This document shows, piece by piece, positions 13,412 through 13,506 of a DNA stretch of 64,000 bases. The translations under genes were made by a program, and so were the position numbers. The notes beneath the pieces were generated by a model, which saw only the letters and a program-made list of their open reading frames with translations, did not search any database and was not told the DNA's origin. The stretch is from a virus, in the IMG/VR virus record IMGVR_UViG_3300032770_000007, positions 32,001-96,000 of that record, one strand, 5' to 3'. Positions within the stretch are counted from its first letter, which is position 1, and every line of letters begins with the position of its first letter.

Positions 13412-13506
13412 TGGTATCCCTACTAGGACTCGAACCTAGATTGTGCTCTAATCTGGAGCCAAGGACGGTTTATAAGGCCGTTGTTTTGCCATTAAACTAT
13501 AGGGAC
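13412..13506 (-). tRNA. tRNA-Ile(TAT) with long variable arm bearing a GAT loop
   Basis: loop CT-TAT-AA; extra arm GCTC-CAGATTA-GAGC; CCA. Confidence 0.82.

Follow-up and report, generated by a model that had tools for sequence, protein, structure and literature searches.

A phage tRNA(UAU) with a second anticodon-like arm carrying GAU: a possible handle for isoleucyl-tRNA synthetase

A 64,000-nucleotide stretch of viral DNA (hereafter called the window; bases 32001-96000 of the IMG/VR virus record IMGVR_UViG_3300032770_000007, which measures 125.8 kb and is estimated to be 69% complete) carries on its minus strand, at positions 13412-13506, a tRNA gene with two anticodon-like arms. The gene is 95 nt long and was called tRNA-Ile(tat) by ARAGORN. 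It was also recognized by Rfam family RF00005 with 57.7 bits at a gathering score of 29 (model positions 1-71); the RF00005 alignment treats the second arm as an insertion in the variable region. The 5' acceptor strand GUCCCUA, U8 and A9, the D arm GUUU-AAUGGCA-AAAC, and A26 occupy 13482-13506. Arm 1, the putative decoding arm, follows at 13465-13481; its stem is ACGGC/ACCGU with a C-A mismatch adjoining the loop, and its canonical loop CUUAUAA (13470-13476) presents the anticodon UAU (13472-13474). A linker of two nucleotides, CC (13463-13464), leads to arm 2 (13441-13462), a pseudo-anticodon arm with the stem UUGGCUC/GAGC-A-CAA (seven pairs, one bulged A) and the 7-nt loop CAGAUUA (13449-13455), in which GAU lies at 13451-13453. 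The gene ends with U67, the T arm CUAGG-UUCGAGU-CCUAG, and the 3' acceptor strand UAGGGAU (together 13416-13440), the discriminator A73 (13415), and an encoded CCA (13412-13414). The first acceptor pair is a G1.U72 wobble formed by 13506 and 13416. In the ARAGORN cloverleaf all helices are intact, with an acceptor stem of 7 bp and a T stem of 5 bp. The variable region of 25 nt reads CC-UUGGCUC-CAGAUUA-GAGC-A-CAA-U; the tail that separates arm 2 from the T stem has 1 nt with the outer UUG/CAA pairs included and 5 nt (ACAAU) with the inner GCUC/GAGC stem alone. An earlier note on this DNA had described a UAU anticodon plus a long variable arm with GAU in a 7-nt loop; the letters match this description exactly. 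The element at 13412-13506 is a real tRNA.

Relatives of the gene were collected by pattern scans. All of the scans ended before the matches were exhausted; every count given here describes a sample, and the totals of loci are lower bounds. The forward scan of viral contigs used the pattern CTTATAA-N(28-40)-GGTTCGANTCC, which fixes the UAU loop, the T loop, and the long spacing between them and leaves arm 2 unspecified. It returned at least 119 loci. A tRNA(tat) of 88-99 nt was called by ARAGORN in 88 of them, and 74 of these genes were unique. Addition of one 87-nt gene from a second scan (spacing 12-40) gave 75 unique long tRNA(UAU) genes, "long" meaning at least 86 nt; intermediates of 80 and 82 nt were counted with the short genes. 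GAU was found at positions 3-5 of the arm 2 loop in 71 of the 75 genes, in 68 by the best hairpin with a 7-nt loop and in three more (L035, L085, and L097) once ties in register had been resolved.

The window gene and the 75 homologues were aligned with MAFFT (76 sequences in total). The pattern itself fixes CUUAUAA and GGUUCGA-UCC. Outside these segments, the only columns conserved to at least 90% were G54, A55, and U56, which are the GAU of arm 2, and A92, which is the discriminator. The positions flanking the triplet varied among the 73 loops that could be compared. Position 1 was C in 50 and U in 23; position 2 was A in 61, U in 8, and G and C in 2 each; position 6 was U in 44, A in 13, G in 10, and C in 6; and position 7 was A in 53, G in 13, and U in 7. 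Compensatory changes occurred in all four inner pairs of the arm 2 stem, and 98.5% of the cells were paired across the 76 sequences. The covariation score of arm 2 was 0.796 compared with 0.146 in shuffled alignments; none of 500 shuffles reached it, and scores of 0.08-0.15 were obtained when the partner strand was slid. RNAalifold predicted a five-helix structure including arm 2 unaided from the 76 homologues. The commonest linker between the two arms was 2 nt (45/75), and the tail between arm 2 and the T stem measured 5-6 nt in 65 of 75 genes. Arm 2 is not a chance hairpin. Nor does the extra loop vary freely in homologues, a point that the earlier note had singled out for checking: changes affect the loop flanks and the stem, and GAU persists (71/75).

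The reverse scan, CAGATTA-N(8-13)-GGTTCGANTCC, was anchored on the arm 2 loop and the T loop and left arm 1 unspecified. At least 120 loci were obtained; in 112 a tRNA held the pattern, and eight had no ARAGORN call. In 108 of the 112 the tRNA was a tRNA(tat) of 88-96 nt, and no other first-arm anticodon occurred among the matches listed. The remaining four, ordinary tRNAs for Gly, Leu, or Cys, matched where the search word overlaps their single anticodon loop. The arm 1 loops recovered in this way were CUUAUAA (33), CUUAUAC (31), CUUAUAU (7), UUUAUAC, UUUAUAA, and UUUAUAU (5 each), and a few others, giving the consensus YUUAUAN. As arm 1 keeps U33, UAU, and A37 almost without exception and arm 2 keeps only its triplet, the two loops are under different constraints, and arm 1 resembles a decoder. 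Together, the two scans demonstrate selection on both loops and a strict coupling of UAU with GAU. Of 126 family members that were parsed, 123 had A73 and 80 had G1.U72; for comparison, G1.U72 occurred in 16 of 102 neighbouring tRNAs and, among phage tRNA(UAU) genes of class I, in 16 of 45. The same G1.U72 pair was also noticed in two other genes of the phage, a tRNA(GAU)-like gene treated below and a tRNA(CAU) at 8815-8888.

The geometry of arm 2 was compared with that of 27 class II tRNAs (Leu, Ser, and Tyr) from the same loci. In these controls the variable region had 13-20 nt (24 nt in one case), the loop 3-4 nt in 21 of 27, and the tail 0-3 nt in all 27. The two-armed genes counted here were 134 in number and had been preselected for GAT in the right region, exceptions having been dropped beforehand; their variable region had 20-27 nt (21-27 nt in 133 of 134), the loop 7 nt in 89, and the tail 5-6 nt in 90. 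Arm 2 and its tail thus match in size an anticodon arm together with a variable loop of class I, i.e. the molecule has two anticodon-type arms in tandem. A class II assignment (Leu, Ser, Tyr, or the nev-tRNAs, which carry a V arm and are specific to nematodes) disagrees with the 7-nt loop, the family tail of 5-6 nt, and A73, although charging with Leu or Tyr is not a matter that sequence alone decides. The 8/4 or 9/3 fold of allo-tRNAs is ruled out by the 7-bp acceptor stem and the 5-bp T stem. That the GAU loop might pair with a conserved AUC in another part of the molecule was also considered and ruled out, since the T loop of the window copy, UUCGAGU, contains no such word.

The G+C content of the phage record is 37.7%, and AUA makes up 634 of 2163 isoleucine codons (29%) in its 114 open reading frames (ORFs) of at least 120 codons. 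Neither ileS nor tilS was found in the 125.8 kb. The abundance of AUA combined with the failure to find ileS or tilS implies that the phage needs AUA to be read and relies on a host enzyme. For Escherichia coli isoleucyl-tRNA synthetase (IleRS), kcat/Km is 360-fold lower for tRNA-Ile2 with UAU than with the lysidine-containing anticodon LAU (PMC3575796, Table 1; this and all other papers cited are used here from partial text). The tryptophan following the zinc-site cysteine of the enzyme (W905) is conserved in tilS-bearing species, and its change to arginine relieves the defect with UAU (PMC3575796). The strong isoleucine determinants are the discriminator and the anticodon (PMC9976931), and it is these two, as A73 and GAU, that the family conserves. 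In the window copy A73 is present (13415). G34 A35 U36, or L34, is absent from the decoding arm, which has U34, and GAU occurs in arm 2 only. The minor determinants of E. coli are C4-G69, U12-A/G23, and C29-G41 (PMC9976931). C4-G69 and U12-A23 exist in the window copy; arm 1 has G-C instead of C29-G41, and C-G is found at the equivalent of 29-41 in arm 2 (C49-G61), as it is in 58 of 76 family members. For bacterial-type IleRS, N6-threonylcarbamoyladenosine at position 37 (t6A37) is a further strong determinant (PMC9976931), and arm 1 of the window copy, with A37 after U36, could carry it; its arm 2 has U in the equivalent position and could not.

The long-spacing pattern was repeated with the amber loop CUCUAAA and the opal loop CUUCAAA in place of the UAU loop. 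The amber scan returned at least 111 loci with 48 tRNA(cta), of which 41 were unique long genes (88-97 nt). In 33 of the 41 a second hairpin of at least three pairs exhibited CUG or UUG in anticodon register, and in 39 one of these triplets lay somewhere in the second loop; the other two genes were class II-like. G73 was present in 28 of the 41, and U1-A72 or a mismatched first pair in 37. The opal scan returned at least 119 loci with 45 tRNA(tca), again comprising 41 unique long genes. CCA was found in the second loop of 21, 13 of them in strict register. These CCA-arm tRNA(UCA) genes combined A1-U72 or G.U with G73 in 20 of 21 cases, and G1-C72 was found in one. The other 20 long tRNA(UCA) genes had Sec- or Ser-like long arms, none with a CCA loop. 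The triplets and acceptor ends of these CUA and UCA tRNAs match the bacterial Gln and Trp identity sets (PMC9976931), and recoding of TAG to Gln and of TGA to Trp in phages has been described (preprint 10.1101/2021.08.26.457843), with proteomic support (PMC9523058). The two-armed design recurs in the Gln and Trp suppressor tRNAs of phages.

Two-armed tRNA(UAU) genes are also found in cultured phages. Synechococcus phage S-SRM01 has one of 90 nt (MW015081, 32943-33033), Synechococcus phage S-SKS1 one of 91 nt with the arm 2 loop CCGAUUA (HQ633071, about 178484-178593), and Sinorhizobium phage Phosso one of 93 nt. The earlier note had surmised that such tRNAs may already be catalogued. This applies to Phosso, where the gene is annotated as a plain tRNA-Ile(tat), but not to S-SRM01 and S-SKS1, where it is unannotated in GenBank, and no paper on the arm was found. 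In S-SKS1 the adjoining tRNA(CAU) is likewise unannotated. More generally, tRNA(CAU) was the commonest neighbour of tRNA(UAU) in the viral loci (18 times in 120-nt flanks), and it follows tRNA(UAU) in the window (13263-13337), in S-SKS1, and in S-TIM5. The family members L035 and L024 had no match among named phages.

A scan of bacterial contigs, one genome per species, returned a tRNA(tat) in 20 of at least 120 loci. Twelve of these were of the GAU-arm type and came from Acidobacteriota, Rhodospirillaceae, and other metagenome-assembled genomes; the other eight had no GAU loop and included long-arm tRNAs of Ser- or Leu-like type (e.g. L194, L216, L286, and L310). In three Acidobacteriota genomes the gene resided inside an array of 33-35 tRNA genes that included a normal tRNA-Ile(GAU). 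In Acidobacteriota (L312 7035-7165, L313 7105-7228, and L314 7120-7248) the two-armed tRNA(UAU) adjoins a degenerate paralogue measuring about 91 nt, whose first loop is rich in A and whose second loop lacks GAU. The idea that carriers of the two-armed tRNA lack tilS was ruled out, as tilS was present in all five bacterial carrier genomes checked (four of four if the unpublished genome G004 is left out). The IleRS sequences of the four carriers other than G004 all contain the motif C-x-R-C-W, which is the tryptophan state tied in PMC3575796 to poor recognition of UAU. TilS-independent decoding of AUA, as suggested in the earlier note, therefore holds only trivially, lysidine not being required by UAU, and the tRNA does not replace TilS in the five bacterial genomes checked.

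A further candidate tRNA of the same phage bears on arm 2. On the minus strand at 10287-10361 lies a probable class I tRNA(GAU) of 75 nt, the minimum-energy fold of which is a clean cloverleaf. Its single anticodon loop, CCGAUUA (10324-10330), has C33 and U37 and hence neither U33 nor a purine at 37. It has G1.U72, A73, and CCA, its T loop is GGCAGUA, no GG is present in the D loop, and its D arm (UAGUUUA..GCAAAAC) resembles that of tRNA(UAU). The element was called neither by ARAGORN (down to -ps80) nor by Rfam (E up to 10), and a pattern scan for relatives found none. A tRNA-Ile(GAT) of this phage with the loop CCGAUUA, with which the earlier note had compared the arm 2 loop, is accordingly present as a sequence that folds into a cloverleaf, but both tRNA finders miss it. 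Judging from its predicted fold, 10287-10361 is probably a tRNA of an atypical kind. Loss of arm 1 from a two-armed tRNA could have produced it, or it may be a tRNA-Ile that is nuclease-proof or does not decode.

We propose that the gene at 13412-13506 specifies a working tRNA that reads AUA as isoleucine, arm 1 acting in decoding and arm 2 as a handle for the synthetase, and we put the probability of this reading, which is drawn from sequence comparison, at about 0.6. Arm 1, with its canonical loop U33-UAU-A37, would be used by the ribosome. Arm 2, starting 2 nt downstream, would display in its 7-nt loop, in anticodon register, the triplet GAU that the major tRNA-Ile has as its anticodon. GAU and A73 together would provide host IleRS with the identity elements that are missing from the UAU anticodon, and the GAU arm probably lets the host charging enzyme accept a UAU tRNA. 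IleRS would contact arm 2, and the product would be Ile-tRNA. In the IleRS-bound conformer of the five-way junction, arm 2 rather than arm 1 would probably be stacked under the D stem. The codon that is read would be uncoupled from the triplet read by the synthetase, because arm 1 would serve the ribosome, and arm 2 together with A73 would serve IleRS. That the second loop aids recognition by IleRS was one of three options in the earlier note, the others being a register switch and a decoy, both of which may still hold; the first is favoured by the retention of GAU (71/75), by its coupling to UAU (108/112), and by the Gln and Trp designs, whereas the mechanism itself is something that we infer.

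Several observations weigh against a synthetase handle. If a class I synthetase docks canonically, its anticodon-binding domain lies out of reach of a 4-5-bp arm in the variable position; this geometry problem leads one to expect an alternative stacking, and none has so far been observed. In the arm 2 loop U33 is missing (61 of 73 have A there), position 37 is mostly U (44/73), and with U37 the loop cannot carry t6A37. The one-armed tRNA(GAU) of the same phage shares this odd type of loop, which some other pressure may explain. Four of the 75 long genes have no GAU: L011 has GAC, L053 AAC, and L059 AGC, and in L149 no hairpin was found. (GAC and AAC serve as anticodons for valine, and A35, C36, and A73 are read by ValRS; L011, L053, and L059 could be decaying copies or tRNAs inserting Val at AUA.) The handle is not obligatory, either. 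The scan with spacing 12-40 gave at least 119 loci, 51 of which were long-spacing loci already seen. The 68 short-spacing loci contained 52 further tRNA(tat) genes, namely 49 of class I (72-77 nt) and the genes of 80, 82, and 87 nt, and class I tRNA(UAU) without arm 2 was about as common in the same phage sample as the two-armed form. The two-armed form is a large share of the UAU tRNAs of phages and not their sole form. Cyanophage S-TIM5, with the same host genus as S-SKS1, has a class I tRNA(UAU) of 72 nt. Finally, there is the presence of tilS in every bacterial carrier genome checked. The odd loop of arm 2, the unarmed tRNA(UAU) genes, tilS in the carriers, and the one-armed tRNA(GAU) are the reasons for which our confidence is held near the value given above.

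Some of these observations would be accounted for if isoleucine were charged through the tRNA body and A73 alone and arm 2 had another role, as a binding site for some phage protein or modifying enzyme, as a decoy, or as a cleavage-resistant stand-in directed against a host nuclease for tRNA-Ile(GAU). The arm 2 loop and the one-armed CCGAUUA loop of the phage both avoid U33 and a purine at 37, handle-free class I tRNA(UAU) is common in phages, and phage tRNAs with altered anticodon loops are reported to escape host tRNA nucleases (PMC10264068). What a decoy leaves unexplained is that the GAU arm occurs only on UAU tRNAs (108/112) and that the Gln and Trp suppressors carry their own cognate anticodon with a matching acceptor end. 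Moreover, we know of no nuclease specific for tRNA-Ile(GAU), which counts against the decoy. We regard another role of this kind as unlikely. A dual decoder, with two folds in which arm 1 reads AUA and arm 2 reads AUC and AUU so that one gene serves three isoleucine codons, would fit the dimensions of arm 2 and its 5-6-nt tail, which are those of an anticodon arm and a class I variable loop, and stacking under the D stem is conceivable for either arm. Yet loops that have neither a U-turn nor a purine at 37 decode poorly, and arm 2 has A33 in 61 of 73 and a pyrimidine at 37 in 50 of 73, whereas arm 1 keeps U33 and A37. The host supplies tRNA-Ile(GAU) anyway. A dual decoder appears quite improbable.

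We give very little credence to a class II tRNA of Leu, Ser, or Tyr identity with a shifted anticodon, comparable to nev-tRNAs, that would place another amino acid at AUA. Its variable region of 25 nt, the use of A73 as discriminator also by Leu and Tyr tRNAs, the indifference of LeuRS and SerRS to the anticodon, and the existence of Ser- or Leu-like long-arm tRNA(UAU) without a GAU loop in bacteria (the four loci named above) would speak for it, but the geometry of the arm is wrong, the G73 needed for Ser is absent (A73 in 123 of 126), the conserved GAU would be left without a role, and wholesale replacement at a codon that makes up 29% of the isoleucine codons would be costly. The architecture also resembles a duplicated anticodon arm, degenerate paralogues adjoin the gene in Acidobacteriota arrays, and the window phage has no close relatives against which its copy could be tested, all of which might indicate that a tandem duplication left arm 2 behind as a neutral relic or that the window copy is a decaying pseudogene. 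This is very improbable in view of the retention of GAU through changes in flanks and stem, and of the intact helices, encoded CCA, and canonical decoding loop of the window copy.

Compared with known systems, the tRNA with the GAU arm resembles in function tRNA-Ile2(UAU) of Mycoplasma mobile (PMC3575796), in which UAU likewise reads AUA without lysidine, standard bacterial IleRS accepting UAU poorly. There, the tRNA is of class I with a short variable loop (4-5 nt), the enzyme is adapted (Arg865), and tilS is absent; here, the tRNA has the GAU arm, and the four carrier IleRS keep the tryptophan. A class I tRNA-Ile(UAU) of the M. mobile type is also at odds with the variable region of 25 nt, with tilS in the carriers, and with C-x-R-C-W in their IleRS. 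The Gln and Trp suppressors of phages are alike in having a new anticodon on arm 1, the cognate CUG/UUG or CCA on arm 2, and a matching acceptor end. They differ in that they read stop codons and change the code, whereas tRNA(UAU) would read a sense codon with its normal meaning. A further difference concerns the arm 2 loop, which in the suppressors mostly follows the canonical pattern (CUCUGAA, CUCCAAA) and in the Ile type does without U33 and A37. The nematode nev-tRNA-Ile(UAU)/Gly(CCC) (PMC3333845) share the long extra arm, with UAU as an anticodon, but the arm is of the class II Leu type and the tRNAs are charged with Leu, whereas arm 2 has the shape of an anticodon arm, and its GAU is conserved. 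Allo-tRNAs (PMC5389517) are irregular long-arm tRNAs of bacteria and phages with UAU among their predominant anticodons; they have 8/4 or 9/3 branches and Ser-type identity, as opposed to 7/5 and A73 in the two-armed family. The tRNA-like structures of plant viruses, e.g. the tyrosine-accepting one of brome mosaic virus (PMC10870377), also present an element read by the synthetase in a non-canonical place, but that structure forms the 3' end of an RNA genome and does not decode. Nuclease-evading phage tRNAs (PMC10264068) have non-canonical loops, as do arm 2 and the CCGAUUA gene at 10287-10361; their changes lie in the single decoding loop, and they have no second arm.

The two-armed gene belongs to a cluster; within the window's first 16 kb, ARAGORN identified 27 tRNA genes. 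A 77-nt tRNA with the anticodon CAA (Leu) at 9799-9875 (minus strand) was found by ARAGORN and Rfam to have a short variable loop only, whereas bacterial tRNA-Leu is of class II; its 5' half resembles tRNA-Leu(UAG) and its 3' half the tRNA-Arg genes of the phage. At 11032-11115 (minus strand) an 84-nt "tRNA-Ala(ggc)" was called by ARAGORN only and stays below the Rfam gathering score; its anticodon stem is weak, CCA is lacking, and a small additional hairpin is present. Outside the window, ARAGORN detected a 73-nt amber suppressor tRNA with the anticodon CUA (record positions 21552-21624) and a tmRNA-like gene (record positions 17629-17951). TAG is the rarest stop codon of the record and ends 14 of the 114 long ORFs. 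ORFs resembling HNH, endonuclease I, and PD-(D/E)XK nucleases are located among the tRNA genes (1401-2556, 9115-9747, 13573-14145, and 14839-15309, minus strand); homing endonucleases are similarly interspersed in the tRNA clusters of T4-type phages. An ORF of 255 amino acids inside the cluster (11871-12638, minus strand) gave weak matches to nucleotidyltransferase domains (NTP_transf_2, 22.9 bits at a cut-off of 21) and, to judge from these matches, may encode a tRNA-end repair or CCA-adding type of enzyme. When it was used as a query, no related locus was found.

Close relatives of the phage were not detected among named phages, either by blastn with the tRNA or by megablast with 4 kb, and an exact 35-mer had no match in viral contigs. 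The ORF at 25309-27183 encodes, according to tblastn, a class II ribonucleotide reductase that is spread across many phage groups and does not indicate the host. One public DNA run contains the sequence of the record; it is a wetland metagenome, possibly the source sample, for which no RNA run is listed.

A description of the second arm was not found in a search of the full-text literature that covered neither subscription journals nor supplements. The arm is not mentioned in the available text of the two recoding papers (10.1101/2021.08.26.457843 and PMC9523058), nor in that of PMC9976931, PMC5389517, and PMC3575796. Routine annotation misses or mislabels the two-armed genes. The odds seem to us slightly better than even that a general trick is involved, in which a spare arm presents the cognate anticodon to IleRS, GlnRS, or TrpRS and leaves the anticodon of the decoding arm free, and that it is used by phages and in some bacterial tRNA arrays. 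The Ile(UAU/GAU) tRNA would be the sense-codon member of this set, and the design would not be confined to the recoding of stop codons. S-SKS1, S-SRM01, and Phosso are cultured systems in which these proposals can be tested. If they are true, they establish a new rule of tRNA identity, by which the triplet read by the enzyme need not equal the triplet read by the ribosome, and they offer a natural template for codon reassignment with anticodon-dependent synthetases in genetic-code engineering. They would also answer how host GlnRS and TrpRS charge stop-reading tRNAs, a question left open in the available text of 10.1101/2021.08.26.457843, and would explain how AT-rich phages have AUA read in hosts whose IleRS rejects UAU.

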